A DNA stretch of 63,367 nucleotides, filler included, from Globobulimina sp. (Eukaryota): assembly GCA_003354225.1 (NCBI GenBank). It is 25 parts of 25 records of this genome, joined end to end, with 100 filler letters (N's around TTAATTAATTAA, not from the genome) between each part and the next. Parts side by side here need not be neighbours in the genome. Positions count along the whole stretch, not along the records: positions 43,172 to 45,609 come from PIVH01006688.1; 24 more parts are not named here. One strand, 5' to 3'. How positions within the stretch are numbered: position 1 is the first letter of the stretch; every line of letters begins with the position of its first letter. The notes under the pieces are model-generated. The model had not been told where the DNA came from and did no database searches. It was given only the letters and a program-made list of their open reading frames with translations. The translations under genes and the position numbers were made by a program. Of the stretch, positions 20,324 through 54,875 are shown in pieces.

Positions 20324-20708
20324 TGTTTCGGATAAAGATAATTTATCATATTTAGATATTACGGATAATCGAAATTTATTGAATGGTAAACTGATTAATG
20401 CCTTTCCACATTTAACACATATTGAGATTTATTGTACTGATTATTTAGGATCTAAATCATATCAATTTGGTTTATGTGTATTATTGGATATTTTGAGTTT
20501 ATTAGAAACAAGAAATAAAATAAAATGCTCCTTATATGGTTGGTGGAAGGATATGTGGACTGGAAATCGAAGAAGTTGGCTTTTTTATGTGTATTCATCA
20601 ATATCATCATTATTAATCAGTAAATATAAAGAAATAACAACATCAATACAGGAAACAAGAAATGCACGTGGTCGTAGACAAGATTTATTAATATTTGAAT
20701 GTGAATGA
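20324..20708 (+). CDS. 3' end of a multicopy hypothetical gene
   Basis: Open from the contig start; its last ~140 nt plus 3' UTR recur inverted at 22564-22762. Confidence 0.55.
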
Positions 20709-22762
20709 ATATCTAAATATGAATCACTCATTAAATACAATTTATATTTTTCTTTTTGTGCTGTCTGTATTTTCCGTTTCATTGTAAATCTTTTTAATTA
20801 ATAAAAATGAATTTTAAATCTTTTTTTTGTGCTGTCTGTATTTTGACGAACGCCGCTTCTAAACGACAACCTAGCTCGATCTACAAATGTCAGTCAATAC
20901 TCAATAGCAAGAGCTGTACTCAACGTGTCGATGGTAATGTTTTTCAAATAACTCTGTTATATTGCAAGCAGCGGGTATTTCAAAAGGAAAACATATATAA
21001 TCATCCCAATAAATTTCACAAATATTAGCAATATCCTCATCATTTAAGTCCTCTCTTTTCAAGTTGAATTTATGCAAAATATTACTTCCCACATTGCGCA
21101 CATATCCATCATTTCTATTCCTTTCGTGTTTAAAATATGTTTCCATCAATAAACTCGCATTCGATTTCAGTTGTGGATCAACAATATGTTTTGCCAAAAC
21201 CTGTGGCAAATCGTTATTCAAATTATCCAAATTGCCAACAAAGGTAAATAAACTATGCACTGTTTGCATGAAATGGTGATTCGATACTAAGTGGAAATTA
21301 ATCCATTTCCTTTCTGGTATTTCCTCCAACATCAATCTGTTTTTTTTAACTGTTGTTGGCTGCAACATATTGTTTATCCATATTCGTAATATTTGTAAAC
21401 CAGTCATACCATCAAAATCAATGTCCATTTCCATTCTTTTCTGTTTCTTTTCAATTTTTCTCTTTACAGCTTCAAAAAAGCCAGATAAAAATTTCTGGAT
21501 TGGATCACGGACAAAAGTGAAGATGGTCGCATTCTTATTTACGGATTTTAAGAAAGTGTCTCTACGCATTCCTCCCCTTTGAATGGGACCACTTAATATT
21601 TGATGCCGATGCCTCTTCAATGGATCCGCAGCATTGACATTCAGTTTCTTTTCCACAAACAACCTATTTAAGGCACTCTGTATTGTGGTGCCCGCTGCTT
21701 TGTAGTTGTGAATGTAATTCAATTGTTTGGAGTGGAATAGTTCTCCAGCAATGGATCCATTGTCAGATAGGTCAGGCAGTACATATTTACATCGCAAATA
21801 ATATGGAAACCAGTTGTTTGTTTCAGGACTTATTTTGAGGATATTATTGTGAGTGGAAGTATTACATTTGAATGGTTGTTTGCTTCGTTGCGCGATGATT
21901 CTATGCCAGTTTGCTTTTTCAGTAATTATAATGTTTGGTGGTTGCAGTGGGACATTGGAAATGTTGGCGGAGTATACTATGGATTGTTGCTCTTTATTCG
22001 GTTCATTATCTAATTTATATTTGTCAACAAGAATAAAAAATGAAGCAATGCAAAATGCGATCATAAACGCCATCAAAATGAAAACATTCCTTGCAATTGC
22101 CATGCTCGTATTTATCACAACAGTCAGTTAACTGAAGCTGTTTTTTTTGCTTAGTCTTGCATACTAAAATGTATTTTAGTATTCTTGCATTTAGTATGCT
22201 TAGCCATATAGATCAGATATATGAGCATTCAAACTTTTTTATTTGGTTTCTTTGTTAAAAATGATTGTGTTTCTGCTGTGTCTTGTTGGTTCAACTATTA
22301 TTCGTTCACTGTAAAGTGAATTTTTTATTTTGCTGACGTGTGTTTTTTAGCCCCAGGCCAAAAACTGAAACCAATCAAAAAAAATGAAACCAATAAAAAA
22401 AATGTTATGACAAACAAAAAATGAAAAAACAAATCAAAAAAAAAACAAACAAAAATAAAATTGGCACGAAACCAATCAAAAAAAAATACAAATCAAAATC
22501 CGAATGCATATTTTAAAAATGAAAAGGAAAATACAAACATACATTTAACGCTACATTTAAAACACAGACAGCACAAAAAGAAAAATATAAATTGTATTTA
22601 ATGAGTGATTCATATTTAGATATTCATTCACATTCAAATATTAATAAATCTTGTCTACCACCCCAAGAACCCTTTGTTTCCTGTATTGATGTTGTTATTT
22701 CTTTATATTTACTAATTAATAATGATGATATTGATGAATACACATAAAAAAGCCAACTTCTT
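20570..22762. repeat. 199-bp diverged inverted repeat pair (20570-20768 and 22564-22762)
   Basis: Reverse-complement match throughout, apart from one substitution and a divergent patch of about 15 nt. Confidence 0.92.
20901..22103 (-). CDS. Golgi-type (Sulfotransfer_2) sulfotransferase
   Basis: N-terminal signal anchor; 5'-PSB YIHNYKAAGTTI; 3'-PB FTFVRDPIQKFLSGF; C-terminal IYWDDYICFPF. Confidence 0.88.
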   Translation of the reverse strand: MAIARNVFILMAFMIAFCIASFFILVDKYKLDNEPNKEQQSIVYSANISNVPLQPPNIIITEKANWHRIIAQRSKQPFKCNTSTHNNILKISPETNNWFPYYLRCKYVLPDLSDNGSIAGELFHSKQLNYIHNYKAAGTTIQSALNRLFVEKKLNVNAADPLKRHRHQILSGPIQRGGMRRDTFLKSVNKNATIFTFVRDPIQKFLSGFFEAVKRKIEKKQKRMEMDIDFDGMTGLQILRIWINNMLQPTTVKKNRLMLEEIPERKWINFHLVSNHHFMQTVHSLFTFVGNLDNLNNDLPQVLAKHIVDPQLKSNASLLMETYFKHERNRNDGYVRNVGSNILHKFNLKREDLNDEDIANICEIYWDDYICFPFEIPAACNITELFEKHYHRHVEYSSCY

Positions 22763-28787: not shown

Positions 28788-30379
28788 ATGACGTTCGTCA
28801 ACTATGAACGGTTCATGAATACATTTTTTGATATTTTTGCAGCATTGATATCAATATCTGATATTGCAACAGATGTCATAGTCACATATCAGTTTTACCA
28901 AAACGATCGCATGGTATTTTTTGGTGTTTCATTATCTTTTATTATATTGGCTCAGTTATCGTACACACTCGCATTTGTTGCACTAATTGGCAACGAAAGT
29001 AAACCATATAAAATATTTCTAATGTGGTTATTTATACTTCCATTTTCACCAATTATCAGTTTTATATTTTATTTAACTGAAGATCCCAACTCATATATTT
29101 CAAATTTATTCAAAGACTATTTTCCGTTTGCTGTAGAGTTTACTGCCACGTACATTGATAAAGGAGAAAGTAAACTAAAGCAATGGATGAAAAAGAAAAT
29201 ACACAAACATTTAGGGTTTATAATGGAATCATTGATTGAAGCGTTCCCGCAGTCGGTACGCACTTTTTATATATAATTCAATTTAAAATTATTTCCCATT
29301 CATGCAATATTAATTAAAAAAAACAGATCCTACAACTTGCCGCAATTGTCATTTATAAGGAAGCTGATATTGTGCGCATTATATCCATCCTAATAAGTAT
29401 GCTGTCAGTTTCATCCAAAAGCTTTATACTTTCCATTCAATTCTCCATGAATATAAAAACATTATTCTTCAACTGGCTATGTGCTGTCACAGACTTTATA
29501 GTTAGGTCAATTTACTCGATTATAAAAATTATATTTATTGTTATAAAACAATACGACAGGGAATATTTTTTGCAGTGTCATGGGCTTTTTATGACTCTGA
29601 TTATGGAACAATATCAATGATTGCCTCAATATGGAAAATGAAGGTGTTATTCACTGTCATACCATTGGTTTTTAGCATTAGTGTCGGTGTATATTGCTTT
29701 GGTATATATAAGCTGTGGATTAGTATATATCCGCAATGTGACATTGCTGCTGTATTTGCTGGTTTTTGTGGCTTTGTTACCATTCAACTTTTATGGGCCT
29801 TTGGTATGGTTTTAGGTGTTTTAGCTTTGGAGATATCCACATTTCTGCTCATTGCATTTCCAATGTTTGTGATCGGCAGTATTCGACTGCCAACAGACGC
29901 TAAATCAAACCAGTTATGGCTAAATGTTTTGTCTTGGATAAAATCAGCACATTCTCATAAATATGATGGTATATTATCATTGACAAAAACACAAGATTCC
30001 ATTATTCGAATTTGTTGCATCAATCAAAGCATGATTGATAATAAAAAGTTGTACACGCGCTTTGATAAAAAGTTTGTAGCATTTATCAACTCGCATACAT
30101 CAACAAATTATATGGGCATTAAATCATTGTCAGAACTGCGGAGCCATCACGATGTGGTGGATTTTGGTGCCGGCCCATCGCCTGAATTCTTGCCATCATG
30201 TCTGGCGTTGCTGAGCTTGCCATATCTGATTACAAAACAGGAGATTGATAATGGTCAACTCATTGGAAGGGAATGGATGTTTTATGGGGTTTGTTTTGTT
30301 AATTTTATCATTGCTCCATTTTATTATTTATCGAGGATTATAAACATTGCGTTTCCGTTTGCAACACTTATGCTGTTAT
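28788..30379 (+). CDS. XK-related multi-pass membrane protein, 3' partial
   Basis: DIATDVIV..FY, ESLIEAFPQS|ILQL and SILISMLS motifs; introns 29256-29326 and 29501-29559 are both in frame. Confidence 0.8.
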
Positions 30380-35557: not shown

Positions 35558-37734
35558 CGCCCTTCTTTTAACAACGAATTTGACATTGATTTCGCATTCG
35601 AATTATTATTCATTCTATGATGAAATGGAGGTTGCGGCGACAATGAATTGCCTCGCTTGCCATCGCTATTTATAATCCCTTGAGGTGGCAAATCATATAA
35701 TTGCTCGGTATCATTTTTATCGATGATATATTGTATTTTAATCGCATTCGAATGTGGTTTGGGGGGCGGTGGTACATCCGATTGTACTTCGAATGTATTA
35801 TTTGACACACTTTCTTTGTTCTGGTTATTTTCCACGGATACAAGTTCATTGTTTTTCTGCTTAAGCTGCATGCGCTGATATTGTTGCTTCATCAGTCGTT
35901 GCTGTCGCTGTTGTTGTTGTAACAACAAATGTTGTTTCTGTACACCATCAATGGGTGGCGGCAGTGGCGGTTTATGCGCATTCTCCGGATATATATAGTC
36001 AGCATGCTTTAGTTTGGTATCTTTGCCTTGTGCTGCTTTATATAATTGTTCCTGTTGTACTTGCATTGCAAATTGATAATCGCTAAATTCCTGCACACTT
36101 TCTGCATTTGGCAACGGTGCGTTATAACCACTCATTACACCTAAATTATGTATCTGTTGCATACTATTTACGGAGCGATGTGCCGGCGGCACCGATATCT
36201 GATTCATATTCATATTATGCACATTGATGCGTTGATGTTGCGAGGGCAGCGGCTGTGAATTAACTGAATTTGGACGATATACGTTGTCATTAAAGGGCTG
36301 CATTTGTATGTTGACAGGATATGGATTCATATAATTGTATGTATGCGCATTCCAATTATGCGAATTGTGTTTTATATGTACTTGCATGTTATCCTTGGCA
36401 TTGATCAATATTTCTTTATCATTATCCGCATCAATATACACGTTATTGTTATTTTTGCTGTTATTGGCTAATAATGGCTGATTTATTTCCAGTTTGCTGC
36501 CTTTTTCCACCGCCAGCTCAGACAACCAATTATATTTAAAAAATAACCAGATCAAAAAGGTTAAGACATTCAATAAATATAAGGCTAAATACGCCAAAGT
36601 CCAACAAGAATGTGTGAAGGAATATTCTATTGACATGAAAAAAATAATAAATGCTATACTGTTCAAGACATAGCGCATTAACATTATCAGTCCACAAACA
36701 CAATTGAATGGTAGCTGACTCATATAATAATAGGATGAAAACAGACAGGTAATACAATAAAATATAGCGCCCAGCACACTGTGCGGATCCATCAAACTGT
36801 CATTGATTTCATATCTGACGCTCCATACTCGCATAGCTATGCGACTGCATAATATCTCCCAAATAAACAACACAAGCAAACTTATATAGAATGCTGCTAA
36901 AATATCCCCGTCCCGACACCACAGATAAAACAACACGAATGGCATGATTCGCATCGACAAATCGGAGCAAAAATATATAGTTCCAACTATATTATAGTAC
37001 CATTTCGTTTTCAGTGAAGATTTATCTGTTTTTGCATATAATTAGTTATGTTAAACAGCGCAAAATCGCAAAAAAAGAGAGGTGTAACTGTGGAATGCCG
37101 AGATTCGCGCATAGTTTCGAACCCATTTTGTGAGGCCAGAGCCAAACGAAAATATGGAGATACAAATGGATATAATAAGCATCCAGTTATGTGTTATGCG
37201 GTGGGTGTCGTAGATGATTAAATATGAGATCTGTAACGAGAAACTTAGCATGGATTCAGCAAAGGATTCGATTGCACGGATTTTGGCCATATTGGTCCGG
37301 ATGGAGATGATTTTATGAATGTAATTGTATGCATCAGAGGATGGGTCAAATAGCACTGATTCTTCATCTTTGGAATAATTGATAGAAAAGAAATTTTTAT
37401 GATCATCGTCGCCATCAAAAAATAAATAACATAATAAGACAACGGGTCCAAATCCAAGCATGGACAATACTGCAACACAGAAAACTGTGCTGAATGATTC
37501 TGGTTTCATGACAACAATCACTTCTCGAGTGGTGAATGCATTTGAAATGACGATGATTGCAATTAATAAGGCTGCCCAATGGGACTGTTCCTGATATAAA
37601 AAATCAATCGCTACAAATATATCGCTGTAAATGTCGACCATGGTGATGGCTGTTCCTAACATTGAGGCAAGTAATAAAGCTTTCCATTTGTCTGATACGC
37701 AACAGAAAGTGCCCAAGCATTGTTCCAAGCACAT
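35558..37734 (-). CDS. XK-related membrane protein with long Q/P/N-rich tail, 3' partial
   Basis: DIYSDIFVA, IESFAESMLSFSLQ and SICISIFS motifs; intron 37026-37088 joins the two ORFs in frame. Confidence 0.78.
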
Positions 37735-42945: not shown

Positions 42946-43346
42946 CTTTCTTGCATGCACATAACAACATCAATATGGCACTCAGTAGGCATGGCAGCAT
43001 GAGCTGTTACGTAACATGTAACTTTTTTGGCTTAGTTTCGTTTCGTTTCATTTCAACCATTAGCAAAGTTTNNNNNNNNNNNNNNNNNNNNNNNNNNNNN
43101 NNNNNNNNNNNNNNNTTAATTAATTAANNNNNNNNNNNNNNNNNNNNNNNNNNNNNNNNNNNNNNNNNNNNAGAGGAGAGAAGAGAATAGATAAAAAATA
43201 GATTTGGATGGATTTGGTGAATTCAGGTGAAAATTAATTGTTTGATGATGGGGAATTGTATGGTCATCACCACCCTCACAAACAACAGAAATGACAAACA
43301 TATTTTAATTTTTGTTTTTGTTTCTGCGTTTTTATTTAAGAAAGTA

Positions 43347-44976
43347 ACAGCTATGATAAATACCTGCTTTCAAAGAATTTTTCAATTTATCAAATAATTT
43401 TTCAAGTTTATCAAACAAATCAAGTTTTTCAAATAATTTATCTATTTATCAATCAATTTTTCTAGTTTTTCTAGTTTTCCATGCATTGTAAGTTCTGAAC
43501 ATTTCAAACATAAAATATACTGTACGTAAAACATGAAAACTATATAATTATCGATCGATCAAATAAACGCATCATTAAACAAAATGGAGAGGAAAAAGAA
43601 TTAAAAGAATTATATAATAATCAAATCTCTGACTCTGATAAAATTAATTGAACACATTGCTGTTTTGTTTTTTGTGATAATTTATCTTTGTCTGTATATC
43701 TAAATGCGCAGTCTATGCAACATTGTTCACATAATCTGTGACAAAATCCACATATTTTATAATATTGCCGATCATTAAATGAAAATAAAAAATATAAGGC
43801 GAGTGCATTAATAGTGGTATCAATAACATCTGCAATTTCATATTCACCGCGGAATTCATCTGGCTCTGACAACTTAATTACATACAAATTGATCAAATTT
43901 GCAATATATGATGAAATTATACCAATTACTACCAACAAAGTATAGCGAGTCCATGCTTTCATGATCCCCAAACCAATAATCTGCATATTATTATCATTAC
44001 GATCAGCGGCTTCAATATCAATCTTATTTTCTGTACGTTGTAACATTCGCAATGTTATGGATTGAAACACCTTTTTGCACGATAAACATAGCAAAGTCAT
44101 TGCAAACAAAAAATGCATTGTTATCGTTAATGGACCTAACCAGAAAATAGCATGAGAATATGAATAAAGTAATAGCATATAAAATAGTAACATCATACAA
44201 AATAAAAATGCGATTATAAATACCCAGACATATAATATCTTAATTACCCATCTTGGATACGATAAAAATGAATGACGGAAATCGATATCAATCCTTGCTA
44301 CAAATATATACAACATTATCCATATTCCAATTAAGTAAAATAAGAATATTGAATTGTATAAAAAAATATAGCCTTTGTGATAATATGATGAAGTAATTAT
44401 TACAATCCACGATAGTAAGCAACATAAAAACGTACCAATCGCAAATGAAATAAGACCACATACATTGCATCCGATCATTAATTTGTAACTATTTGTTGAT
44501 TTGATGACTGTTGAAATTGAATTGTCTTCATTTGGCTTCAATACATTTTTAATGACTCTGCAAACCAAGTAAATCAATAACACTGCAGATACAGTGTCTA
44601 ATAATGCTGCTATCAGCAATACAACAAAGTGCGACCTCGAAACCATTAAATGCAATAATAAGTTTTTTATTTTTCAAAAATTAAAGTTTTTTGGTTTAAT
44701 TTCTCAACCATGGAAAAAATACAACATTTACTCAAACATTTGATCCGTCTGCCATTAAAATGTTTCTTTAATCCGTCTGCCATGAGAAGCTACTAAAGTT
44801 TGTTGAAAATGTAAAAGTTTTTTTAGGTAAACATCAAAGTCTGGAAAACTAGAAAAACTAGAAAAATTGATTGAAAAACTAGAAAAATTATTTGGAAAAT
44901 TTGATTGTTTGATAAACTAGAAAAATTATTTGATAAATTGAAAAATTCTTTGAAAGCAGGTATTTATCATAACTGT
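43347..44976. mobile_element. Cassette bounded by ~135-bp terminal inverted repeats (43347-43481 and 44842-44976) enclosing a 7TM gene
   Basis: acagctatgataaatacctgctttcaaagaatttttcaatttatcaaataattttt... versus its reverse complement ending ...gaaagcaggtatttatcataactgt; right terminus reads CTG|TA. Confidence 0.65.
43621..44646 (-). CDS. Seven-transmembrane (GPCR-like) protein, intronless
   Basis: Seven hydrophobic segments and a Cys-rich tail YYKICGFCHRLCEQCC. Confidence 0.75.
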   Translation of the reverse strand: MVSRSHFVVLLIAALLDTVSAVLLIYLVCRVIKNVLKPNEDNSISTVIKSTNSYKLMIGCNVCGLISFAIGTFLCCLLSWIVIITSSYYHKGYIFLYNSIFLFYLIGIWIMLYIFVARIDIDFRHSFLSYPRWVIKILYVWVFIIAFLFCMMLLFYMLLLYSYSHAIFWLGPLTITMHFLFAMTLLCLSCKKVFQSITLRMLQRTENKIDIEAADRNDNNMQIIGLGIMKAWTRYTLLVVIGIISSYIANLINLYVIKLSEPDEFRGEYEIADVIDTTINALALYFLFSFNDRQYYKICGFCHRLCEQCCIDCAFRYTDKDKLSQKTKQQCVQLILSESEI

Positions 44977-45122
44977 ATCTACGTCGGAATATTGATCGGT
45001 ATAAACCATGCGAATGGACGTGGTTCAGAGGCGCATTTGGTACAATTGATAGAGATTATGGCGCATTTTTAAATTATGCCTTTCATGATTCACATGTGAC
45101 AATATTTACAAGAATCGCATAG
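44976..45122 (+). pseudogene. Degenerate delta-12/omega-6 fatty acid desaturase fragment
   Basis: YKPCEWTWFRGAFGTIDRDYGAFLNYAFHDSHV parallels FAD2 [23 protein letters not shown]..FH...DTHV; the third His box is eroded and a stop follows. Not in the ORF track. Confidence 0.7.
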
Positions 45123-45907
45123 GATGTAGTATTGTAGGAAGAGGACGATGGACGATTGCAAAAGGCAATGAAAATATGGTGCAGGTTAAAAAATGATTTT
45201 TTACGTAATATATACTGCGACCATAGTACGGATTTTACCATAGAACAATGCATTTTAATTTGTGTTATTAATAAGCTGTTAGCGTTGTTGTAATTTCTTT
45301 TGATATTGGATTAAGTCATTAATTTCTTGAGTCAATTTGTTAAACATATCGTTATTTAGTTTTGTTTCAACATACAATCTTAACAACAACTTCTCCGTTA
45401 TCATTGGATCAGGATACTGCATCAAAATATTTGTCACTTGTTCTAATTGCAAATTATCGCCATCACTATTCATGGATTTTGTACACTGCAAAAAGTTAAT
45501 TATATTCAACAACAAATTATTATTATTATTATATTCATATTGATGATGGTTTCGAGTTGATAATAAACATAAAATTGATGTCAATTTGCTTTTTGTTTCT
45601 GAATGATTCNNNNNNNNNNNNNNNNNNNNNNNNNNNNNNNNNNNNNNNNNNNNTTAATTAATTAANNNNNNNNNNNNNNNNNNNNNNNNNNNNNNNNNNN
45701 NNNNNNNNNAACAAAAGAAAAAGCGAAAAAAAAAAGAAAAAAAAGAACCGAAAATCAGTGCACAAATCGCGTCGAAAGCCCCGCAACAACCCCCAGTCCT
45801 ACGGCAATGAAATAGCATGGAACCGCCGTCAGTCCATTCCGCATCACGCCACCGTCCAATCCTTAGCCTCCATCAACCAGCCAATCATCGTCAACAAACT
45901 GTCGAAA

Positions 45908-48544: not shown

Positions 48545-50684
48545 TTAGTTCATTAATATTATACTCGAGAGCTTCTTATTTATTTTATTGCAAATTGTAA
48601 TTTTTAATTTTAATAATCCTAAATTATCAACCAATTCATTTAAAATATCCCGAATATATTTATCATCATCGAATAAGCGATTGGTAATTTTCTTGAAATA
48701 AATGACTTTTTCTTCATTTTGAACTTTATGTTTCTTTGATAAAAACAATAATTCTCTCTCGTCAATAAAATCGAACGGCTCGTCCGAATTATGTATAAAT
48801 GTAATTATTAATTTTTCTTGTTTGAGTATGAATTTATTGTTAATGTTCTTTAAATAAACCAATCTGTTTTTATATATTAATTTGAATTATTCTTATTTTG
48901 GCTGAATGCCAGCCTCTTTCTCGTAATTTACATAATAAATTGTGATGTGACAATCTATGATCTAATTCTTCGTCGTTCAATACAATCGATCGGAAGGATT
49001 CCGATGAATAAACTCCTTGGAAATGATCCATTGAATTATTTGATGAGTTATCTAATAATGTATTCAATTTACCTTTTTTATAATGAATTGCTGTGGTAAT
49101 TTCTCCACTGATTTCATTTAATTTAATTGTTAGATCTAAATAAATCACATTGTATTTTACTTCACATTTTAAGATAATATTTGAATCAATATAATTAACG
49201 TCGTATCTTGAACCATTATCCTTTGCCAATGTCATTTTAATTAATTTAATGTCTTCAGCGTCCAAAACATATTTATTTAATTCAAATAATTCATACAAAT
49301 CATCGATATATCGGCGTTCGAGTAACACATTTATTGCATTGATTTTTGTGGTACTTAGTTTATTTTCAAATATTTTAAATAACCAAATTGTTTTTGTTTT
49401 GTATTCAATGAATAAAAGGCATATATTTGCAATGTTGGGTGAAATAATCCAACCGGTTGCAACAACTTCGTTTAATTTGACTAATTTACCATGAAAATGT
49501 ATGAAAGTTAACTTAAAAACCATATGAATGATATCAATCACACCATTTTGAAAAATATAATTTATTTTAATAAAATCCATCAACCACTGAACTGCGACAA
49601 CAATGTCAGATAAACCTAATGATTCATATAACTTTGATACGTCAGCCGCTCTTTGGATGATTTCATGATCCATAAATTTGTAATTCTCGTCAATGTGATT
49701 CAAATCATTTTTAAGTTGGTAAGACTTTTCTAAGATTATGTTATAATTTGTTTTATAGCGAAATATTGCGAGATATCCATTTAATTTTTTGTTTAAAATC
49801 TTTTGAAAGAAATTTGAAGGATGATTACCTAAACAAAGTACGGGGCGCCACGAAAATGGTAATCCTTTATGAATTTTGTGGAGTGCTCCAATTTTAGCAA
49901 TTTTTGGATATATTTTGTTATTTACACTGTCAAATAAGCCATTAACAAATGGCCAATATCCAGGCTCTAAGTCAATTTTCCATAAATAGTTATATTTTGA
50001 TTTGAAATCTGTATAAAAATCGAGCATTTTCGTCATTATAAATCTGGAAACTTCCCATTCTTCATTTGATAGCAAAATAAAGCTTTCGCCATCTAATAAT
50101 TTGTAGGTTTCTTCGTATAATGTCGATTTTGCCATAATTTCTAATCCCATATTTTTATCTAACTCAACGAATACGAGATTTTCTAATTTGAATTTCTCAA
50201 ATTGATATTTTGTGATTTGAGTGAAATTCATTTCTTTTAACAGTTTATTTTTGAATTTCCAATGATAATTTTGGATTTTCTTGAGATAAATATTTAATTT
50301 GCTATCAAATAATTTATATGCATACTGTTTAGTGTTTATATCAATTGGCATTGATTTACAATACATTGTTAATTGTCTTTTGATCGATTTTGATGAATTT
50401 TTAAATTGTTTGACGTAATTATTTATGTCAATGTCATCTAAAACGCAATTTTTGCCCATTTTTGATATACTTAATGCAAATTTTGGTGTTGAGAATGATT
50501 GAAAATTGAATAGATACTTTTGCGAATATGGAATAATCGAATGATACTTAAATGAGTTACTTTTGATACACAACAATTTATCTTCGTTACTGTTGTTGTT
50601 GTATACCAATTTATTGATTTGTCAAACTTTTAATTGACTGAATTTGAAATGGTCTTCGATCGAATGATCCTTCCAAACTGTTTT
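48545..50684 (-). mobile_element. Penelope-like retroelement reverse transcriptase, no C-terminal GIY-YIG
   Basis: DKNMG, LHKIHK..WRPV, ADVSKLY, VATG..ISPNIANI, RYIDD, YLDL and a PLE-type thumb T.IHYK....L..SSNN. A 1-nt shift near 48880 continues into ORF 48545..48862. Confidence 0.85.
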
Positions 50685-53490: not shown

Positions 53491-54875
53491 TTATGGGAAG
53501 TCTGAGTCGTGCAGCGCACGCTGATTAATATCATTCATGGACTCCACGTTATTGCACATTGTATTATATAATTCTAATTCTGCAGCATCAATATGATTAT
53601 TATTATTGATGGAATCTCGCAGTTTATTGATTGTTGATTTAATTCGGTCATTACGATCCAATAAATTCAATTCGTGTTTTTGATTTTTGGAATCGTTTTT
53701 ATTGGTCCTCTGTTTGGTGAAAAATTGCTTTTTATTTTTATTACGATTAAATCCGTTATTTTTCTTATCATCAATAAATGTACCATCTGAATAATATGAT
53801 GCTCCGCAGTCCTCTATTACATGGTTACTGCGCTCACAACGCGTACAGAATAAACCACTATTTTTATTAAGGTTCGTTCCATCTTTGTGCCAATTTGCAT
53901 AACAGTCTCTCTGTCTATGTCCTAATTTACCACAGCGATAACATGTAATATTATAATTATCATTATTCAAACGCTGTCGTTTCGGATTTGGACCATTATT
54001 TGTGGGAAATCGAGGTCTTTTTGGTCGGCGTGTGAATGGTTTATATGGTTTATTTGGTTTATTTGGTTTTGGTTTTGGTTTGTATGGTTTGCTTGGTTCG
54101 GATGATGTTCGTTTATATATTTCAAAATCCGATGGCGATGCTTTATAACTGGTATATTCGTATGATGCCATACCATCATACATTGGCGAAATTAATTCAT
54201 TTTTAATTTTTCCAAACAATGCATCCCAATTCGCCATATTTACTGGATTAGCTTTTGCAATATAATTACGAGTTAATTTATTTATTAAACCTTCGTTTTT
54301 GTATTTTTTGGCAAAATTCTTCTAATAAATATGCCTTTTAACGCATCCATCTGCACTTCTTGTGATATATTTTTTATTTTATTTTTCTTGCTGCGTCCTT
54401 TGTTAATTAATTTAATACTTTTTACTATCTTTTTTAATTTGGTTTTGTATCTTTGATAGACCATCATTGGGTTTTCATTATGACGTTGGAGATCGGACTT
54501 TAATTTTTGAATAAATTCGTATTTTAATGGCGGAGGTGGATATTTATCCAACATCCATTTGAATAAATTTCTGACGGTCTCGGTCGATGGTTTGACGACT
54601 TTTTCACCATTGCTATTATTATTATTTTCATCATCTTCTGATGAACTGCTGTCATTGCTGTATTCCAACATAAATAACGTTTGTATTTCGGTGCTCAATG
54701 AATTAAATATTCTCGAAAAGCACACATTTTCGTCTCTAAAACAATTTATTTTTAAAAATAACTTTGCACCAAATATATATTTTAAAGTGTCCCGTGGATT
54801 ACCGGAGAAATGCATGGTAAACATTTCCGGATTGGATAACTCTAACATGCGCGATGCAATTGTTGCTTGGGTCAT
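53491..54875 (-). CDS. gag: Gag polyprotein (1-nt frameshift near 54320)
   Basis: FSGNP and LQRHNENP capsid-like motifs; CYRCGKLGHRQRDC and CTRCERSNHVIEDC. The alternate frame NFAKKYKNEG..PVNM bridges the two ORFs. Confidence 0.8.

Follow-up and report, generated by a model that had tools for sequence, protein, structure and literature searches.

Organization of the locus

We examined a 1.63-kb unit in DNA of Globobulimina sp. (assembly GCA_003354225.1), in which a gene for a seven-transmembrane (7TM) receptor-like protein lies between two long inverted repeats, hereafter the arms. The unit was found in a stretch of 63,367 nucleotides (nt), hereafter the window, which is made up of 25 pieces of about 2.44 kb whose length steadily decreases. 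The pieces are held apart by N44-TTAATTAATTAA-N44 linkers (48 stretches of 44 N in all, one on each side of TTAATTAATTAA in every one of 24 linkers). They are separate unplaced contigs, and genes on either side of a linker are therefore not genomic neighbours. The G+C content was 34.2%. The contig that carries the unit spans 43172-45609 (2438 nt) and offers 175 nt of flank on the left and 633 nt on the right.

Read evidence came from ten runs that match parts of this contig, four of which were compared at 85% likeness. All run data are Logan contigs, from which cover, bridges and loose ends can be used; depth and uncovered parts are not evidence. Run X1 is the best match to the contig and may be the assembly's own data. 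None of the ten runs is listed as RNA, and runs X6 and X7 are taken as RNA by guess only. The parts of the unit, including its open reading frame (ORF) and the results of Tandem Repeats Finder (TRF), are as follows.

43347-43481, plus strand: left inverted-repeat arm, with about 22 nt of unique end, about five sub-repeats of 20-21 nt, and then TTTTTCTAG ×2.4
43482-43620, minus strand: spacer that follows the stop codon and is presumed to be the 3' untranslated region, as read from the sequence
43621-44646, minus strand: 7TM ORF, intact and intron-free, 341 residues, member of a foraminiferal family
44647-44741, minus strand: 5' leader and proximal upstream region, of which 44670-44741 is common to one other X1 contig
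44742-44841, no strand assigned: spacer from the upstream region to the right arm; contains a direct repeat of 22 nt (44739-44760 and 44767-44788, 86%)
44842-44976, minus strand: right inverted-repeat arm, as defined by repeat search, alignment and TRF

A preliminary description of this DNA had proposed a single intronless ORF between the arms, and this was found on the minus strand at 43621-44646, encoding 341 residues. The one other ORF of at least 60 residues between the arms has 60 residues and is nested inside it. The 7TM gene is thus the sole ORF of note in the interior, and the unit, as had also been proposed, carries no transposase. The left arm lies 139 nt beyond the stop codon and the right arm 195 nt ahead of the ATG. 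Two X1 contigs, one of 946 nt over 43452-44397 and one of 202 nt over 44670-44871, bridge both inner junctions without differences, which makes these junctions solid. Run X2 gave very deep short contigs on 43582-44647 and almost nothing on the arms, a pattern that, under the limits on depth and cover given above, allows no conclusion on transcription limits.

Structure of the inverted-repeat arms

The two arms were compared by gapped alignment (MAFFT, BLAST). Positions 43347-43481 pair with 44842-44976 over 136 columns at 94.1% identity (E = 1.4e-54), in agreement with the inverted repeats of about 135 bp described earlier, and the 8 differences consist of 6 substitutions and 2 one-base indels. 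An ungapped repeat search placed the arms at 43347-43488 and 44835-44976 (142 nt, 85%). Identity drops sharply at both the inner and the outer limits. For two exact arm pieces of 23 and 24 nt, the window contains a single copy in either arm and no other (0 expected, from 100 shuffles), and BLAST found nothing arm-like in the other 24 contigs of the window.

Internal sub-repeats, also part of the preliminary description, were recovered by TRF as TTTTTCTAG ×2.4 (43457-43478) and AAAACTAGA ×4.4 (44845-44887), together with a unit of 20-21 nt repeated five times in both arms in mirrored order. Each arm starts with ACAG(C/T)TATGATAAATACCTGC and ends on the inner side in TTTTTCTAG repeats. A unique terminus followed by sub-terminal direct repeats is also the build of foldback-type and other sub-terminal-repeat DNA transposons. 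The terminal letters were as reported before, with the right end, read inward, being TA/CAGT and the left end AA/CAGC.

Coding DNA was considered as an explanation of the arms, since their outward reading gives an LEKL-rich, heptad-like peptide (...KLEKLFDKLKNSLKAGIYH..., 43390-43470 and 44850-44960). This reading contains stops and lacks a start codon, so the peptide is probably a by-product of the AT-rich repeat unit. Arm words were also searched in public contigs. All loci in contigs of metagenomes (19 of 19), of prokaryote genomes (4 of 4) and of viruses (1 of 1) match little beyond the query word and are chance matches. The two longest, of 53 nt (83% identical) and 30 nt (93%), are low-complexity.

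The inverted pair could in principle be an artefact of an assembly or laboratory chimera, in which the contig would join sequences that are not neighbours. The contig is indeed a mosaic of repeat, unit and pseudogene fragment, as such a chimera would be. Fold-back artefacts, however, give identical arms, whereas 8 differences, 2 of them indels, separate the present arms over 136 columns. The bridging of both inner junctions, though not of the outer ones, by contigs of X1, a run that may be the assembly's own data, further argues against a chimera. We hold a chimera to be very improbable.

The 7TM protein and its family

The earlier suggestion of a 7TM receptor-like product was supported by AlphaFold2, hydropathy, Foldseek and VIA-align, which together indicate a seven-helix bundle like that of G-protein-coupled receptors (GPCRs). 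Hydropathy peaks gave seven helices in agreement with the AlphaFold2 model, which was built from a 37-sequence alignment and reached a predicted local distance difference test (pLDDT) of 88.6 and a predicted template modelling score (pTM) of 0.88. In the model, helices span residues 4-36, 52-85, 91-123, 132-157, 161-210, 226-259 and 267-285, followed by two more (including 289-317). Foldseek against PDB returned weak matches (best E 8.6e-3, template modelling scores 0.3-0.5), with GPCRs in all of the best 50 matches, and the identity to solved GPCRs was 9-15%. In VIA-align against 48,161 chains, in which helical bundles need a Z above about 13, the model reached Z 17.3 to a designed GPCR-like fold and 13.5-15.5 to GPR156, TMEM87A, Ste2, TAS2R14 and class A receptors; the solved GPCRs that resemble it thus include class A, taste-2 and class C/D 7TM domains. 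With Z 15-16, microbial rhodopsins match the model as well as GPCRs do, so the fold alone assigns no class.

A microbial (retinal) rhodopsin was considered as a candidate. Such a protein would need a retinal-binding lysine inside helix 7, but residues 259-296 include none, and K258 and K297, the closest ones, lie at the helix ends. This indicates that the protein is not a retinal rhodopsin.

The Pfam 7tm families matched none of the 37 family members at E ≤ 0.01, one member having a weak match to DUF7541, and the 341-residue query alone gave just DUF6057 at E 0.66. In the ESM Atlas, the neighbour cluster is auto-named 'Serpentine receptor class gamma' (score 0.95), which we treat as a lead only. 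A HMMER search over 1.84 billion representatives found 102 cluster representatives with E ≤ 1e-3, of which 20 reach E ≤ 1e-10. Ten relatives were looked up by name: all six that could be assigned to an organism were foraminifera (Bolivina argentea, five; Nonionella stella, one), and the other four were ENA or Logan contigs. The closest relatives are two EukProt proteins of Globobulimina turgida that are 89-91% identical by BLASTP and 92% each in the alignment. The 341-residue protein had no match in viral contigs, and the family profile, run against all six-frame ORFs of the window, matched the ORF at 43621-44646 alone.

Conserved residues of the family include R118 (36 of 37 members), F123 (34 of 37), Y295 (37 of 37) and C299 (37 of 37), along with a Cys/His-rich tail. 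The near-invariant arginine is found where helix 3 ends on the inner side, and the invariant tyrosine where helix 7 ends, positions that we take to recall the DRY and NPxxY motifs of GPCRs. On the combined evidence, the product can be regarded as a candidate GPCR-like receptor of a lineage-specific family. As judged from sequence, with all named members that were looked up being foraminiferal, this family appears to be restricted to foraminifera and to lie outside Pfam. Whether or not the unit moves, the gene would define a foraminifer-restricted, GPCR-like family without a Pfam entry and be a candidate for environmental sensing by these amoebae.

Among the relatives, the net length of indels within the ORF is always divisible by three, while one of 5 nt lies in the leader, which speaks for a kept reading frame. 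The listed substitutions (38 of 66) fall 15, 8 and 15 on the three codon positions, with 11 synonymous and 27 nonsynonymous, numbers that are not informative on selection. One G. turgida relative, P0002 (195 residues), matches residues 1-61 and 201-338 of the ORF and lacks helices 2-5 (residues 62-200), perhaps as the result of a deletion, of splicing or of a join made in assembly.

Sequences flanking the unit

Three features were recognized outside the arms.

43172-43337, no strand assigned: left flank, repeated elsewhere, including an ORF on the minus strand (ATG at 43301) of which 43 codons are present before the contig ends
43338-43346, no strand assigned: nine bases outside the inverted repeat, common to at least one other arm-bearing X1 contig
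44988-45193, plus strand: fatty-acid desaturase remnant in two pieces, residues 58-98 and 140-161 of the relative P0105

Two X1 contigs track the left flank to 43337 and then diverge, with a 10-nt indel variant at 43216. No protein homologue was found for the left-flank ORF. The left-flank repeat stops at 43337 and the arm match of another contig starts at 43338, which marks this point as the junction of two repeat families. The true left end of the repeated unit may thus be 43338 rather than 43347.

On the right, the desaturase remnant starts 11 nt from the arm. Its first piece (44988-45101) corresponds to residues 58-98 of P0105 at 88% identity and its second (45128-45193) to residues 140-161. 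Neither the part N-terminal to residue 58 nor residues 99-139 are present, and the reading frame is shifted; the piece is therefore a pseudogene fragment. X6 and X7 contigs that match 44986-45086 continue upstream into an intact desaturase coding sequence (...FLQHTDW). Intact desaturase relatives (PF00487), 73-90% identical over the remnant, are present in NCBI, ENA and Logan contigs. A clean insertion of the unit into a desaturase gene was considered and rejected, as the left flank lacks any desaturase sequence.

Arm and leader sequences in other surroundings

Sequences of the unit were also met in contigs with other surroundings, each of these X1 and X6 witnesses being one single contig. One X1 contig has unrelated sequence up to the point where the match begins, at 43338, and another matches the arm up to 43477 and then has 128 unlike letters. 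A further X1 contig has a variant terminus before 43369; its free letters, which repeat AAAGTAACAG, read AAAGTAACAGTTATG and then 13 other letters. An X1 contig of 70 nt over 43389-43459 differs by 3 letters and 1 gap. Arm contigs with other outsides and other insides show that the arm is a module that occurs elsewhere too.

An X1 contig of 212 nt has 72 nt aligned (44670-44741 of the leader) and then 143 unlike letters, and an X6 contig departs from the leader at 44743. The shared leader sequence thus ends at 44741-44743, some 100 nt short of the arm, which indicates that relatives of the gene exist without exactly this surround. X1 contig depth was 240-577 on the left flank, 76-105 on the left arm, 23.6 inside and 17-31 on the right arm, figures that hint at a small number of additional arms and give no copy number.

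These contigs bear on another explanation, in which two dispersed repeats of about 140 nt inserted independently in opposite orientation, with the gene as a bystander and without any mobility of the unit. In its favour, other arm contigs break at 43338 on the outer side and at 43477 on the inner side, as a solo unit of about 140 nt would. No duplication was found around either arm singly, however, and a scan of the contig, arms included, found no Rfam or tRNA features. Moreover, X1 holds a handful of extra arm contigs; with so few copies, a chance landing of two solo copies 1.35 kb apart would be unlikely unless the family is much larger than is apparent. We therefore regard two independent insertions as improbable.

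Proposed interpretation of the unit as a DNA element

The preliminary description had read the unit as a Pack-type non-autonomous transposon. What stands of this reading is the combination of inverted ends, a 7TM cargo, no transposase and an arm that occurs elsewhere; a target-site duplication and an empty site are missing. With slightly less than even confidence, we interpret the 1.63-kb unit as a low-copy, non-autonomous foldback- or Pack-like DNA element around a whole receptor-like gene, set in rearranged, repeat-rich DNA. In such an element, two terminal inverted repeats of about 135 nt would enclose the complete 7TM gene along with its own upstream and downstream regions, and the five or so sub-terminal repeats of 20-21 nt in each arm would be the presumed transposase-binding sites, provided that the arms serve as transposase substrates. 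Movement of the element would depend on a transposase acting in trans from another locus. The gene may have been captured or carried by the element, and the unit may have moved as a whole at some time. Reshuffling of the locus on both sides after arrival would have erased any target-site duplication.

The closest described analogue is Ssk-FB4 of Drosophila melanogaster (Foldback FB4). As described in passages of PMC8277862, Ssk-FB4 is like the present unit in being non-autonomous, with long inverted ends and a host gene inside but without a transposase, and depends for its movement on an unknown transposase. The same passages give Ssk-FB4 ends of about 700 bp, duplications of 9-10 bp, and three loci whose distinct duplications prove repeated transposition. 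The present unit, in contrast, has ends of about 135 nt, no duplication and one locus seen. It shares with foldback elements inverted ends composed of short tandem sub-repeats (20-21 nt ×5 and 9 nt ×2.4-4.4), although these ends are much shorter than the roughly 700 bp of FB4.

Similarity to Pack-MULE, Pack-TYPE and Pack-TIR elements lies in terminal inverted repeats, non-transposon DNA inside and the lack of a transposase, as far as parts of three reports describe them (PMC8277862, PMC8903248, PMC5861414). Pack elements are defined, in passages of one of these (PMC8277862), by a known end family, a target-site duplication and a parental copy free of transposon ends. Unlike Pack elements so defined, the present unit has no established end family, duplication or parental copy. 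Pack elements usually hold gene fragments, whereas the present unit holds a whole gene with its flanks; small inverted-repeat elements that carry an entire gene are rare in comparison with such Pack-type fragments. A literature search, viewed at the level of titles, brought up no foraminiferal element of this kind.

The right end, TA/CAGT, had led to the proposal of a Tc1/mariner/pogo-style terminus with an imperfect TA target duplication. According to passages of PMC8277862, the duplications of TcMariner elements are in general the 2-bp TA, and their ends are shorter than 100 bp. The likeness is confined to the right end; the left end, AA/CAGC, fails the TA test, the arms are about 135 nt long with sub-repeats, and another X1 contig shares 43338-43346 outside the CAG. 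This assignment is therefore not supported.

Several results weigh against the interpretation of the unit as a mobile element. The TA target duplication is absent (AA on the left, TA on the right), as is a target-site duplication of any kind. A scan of boundaries 43330-43352 against 44970-44992 for k = 2-10 found no exact repeat of at least 5 nt, and hence no 9-10-bp duplication of the FB4 kind; the best candidate, a 7-mer with 1 mismatch and lopsided offsets, compares with about 0.7 expected by chance (our own estimate). No empty-site joint that skips 43338-44985 was present in the four runs compared, although its absence there proves nothing, and no second complete copy, transposase or other cargo was seen in the contig or these runs. 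The flanks are unrelated, with a repeat on the left and a desaturase remnant without a left continuation on the right, which argues that this is not a clean insertion. The outer ends of the arms do not hold significantly fewer differences (1 of 56 columns versus 7 of 80 elsewhere; Fisher p = 0.14). Finally, the extra arm contigs, one each and from what may be the assembly's data, could come from other individuals or alleles. Published Globobulimina data derive from pooled individuals of two species, as stated in part of PMC6783311; if the present material was likewise pooled, some arm 'copies' may be alleles or orthologues.

A further point against mobility comes from another contig of the window (20324-22762), where a Sulfotransfer_2 gene (20901-22103, minus strand) lies between inverted copies of 204 nt that are 95% identical (20570-20773 and 22559-22762). 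The contig ends within the right copy, and a plus-strand ORF has its final 46 codons and its stop codon inside these copies. This case is a plain inverted duplication of coding DNA and not a pair of transposon ends. Two of the 25 contigs thus have a gene between long inverted copies and one of them is a plain duplication, which raises the prior for a non-transposon origin. The Sulfotransfer_2 arms are nearly identical except for a 15-nt mid-arm patch, which differs entirely.

The Sulfotransfer_2 contig shows that inverted duplication around genes occurs in this DNA, and the present unit might have arisen in the same way without transposition, a low-complexity spacer having been reverse-copied across the gene by template switching or palindrome formation, with the other arm contigs representing further members of a spacer repeat that goes with this gene family. 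The lack of both a target-site duplication and an empty site, and the non-contiguous flanks, are what such an event would leave. In contrast to the Sulfotransfer_2 copies, however, the present arms are short, non-coding and sharply bounded and are built of a terminus plus sub-repeats, and the occurrence of the arm with an unrelated outside or inside in X1 contigs fits a free-standing module better than a one-off copy. A local inverted duplication thus appears somewhat unlikely, though it is a serious alternative.

The transposon interpretation is plausible, with movement of the unit unproven, and would place a known kind of element in a group for which the literature search brought up none. 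If the unit moves, it would offer a direct spreading route for a large, fast-evolving receptor-like family in ecologically important protists; receptor-family expansion through the unit, an idea already raised in the preliminary description, is put forward as a hypothesis based on one locus. The broader proposal that foraminifera harbour an active foldback-like family, with ends of about 135 nt that shuttle whole working 7TM genes and drive the expansion and shuffling of a lineage-specific, chemosensory-type receptor family, we consider quite improbable.

Other features of the window

Fragments of XK-related (scramblase-type) membrane proteins were found on two unrelated contigs, at 28788-29276 and 37051-37734 (PF09815, E 7e-8 and 1.5e-10). 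An ORF at 53491-54237 is Gag-like and includes a CCHC zinc knuckle (PF00098/PF14787), and one of 529 residues without a Pfam match occupies 48870-50459 on another contig. The Gag-like and the 529-residue ORFs suggest retroelement debris among the small contigs.

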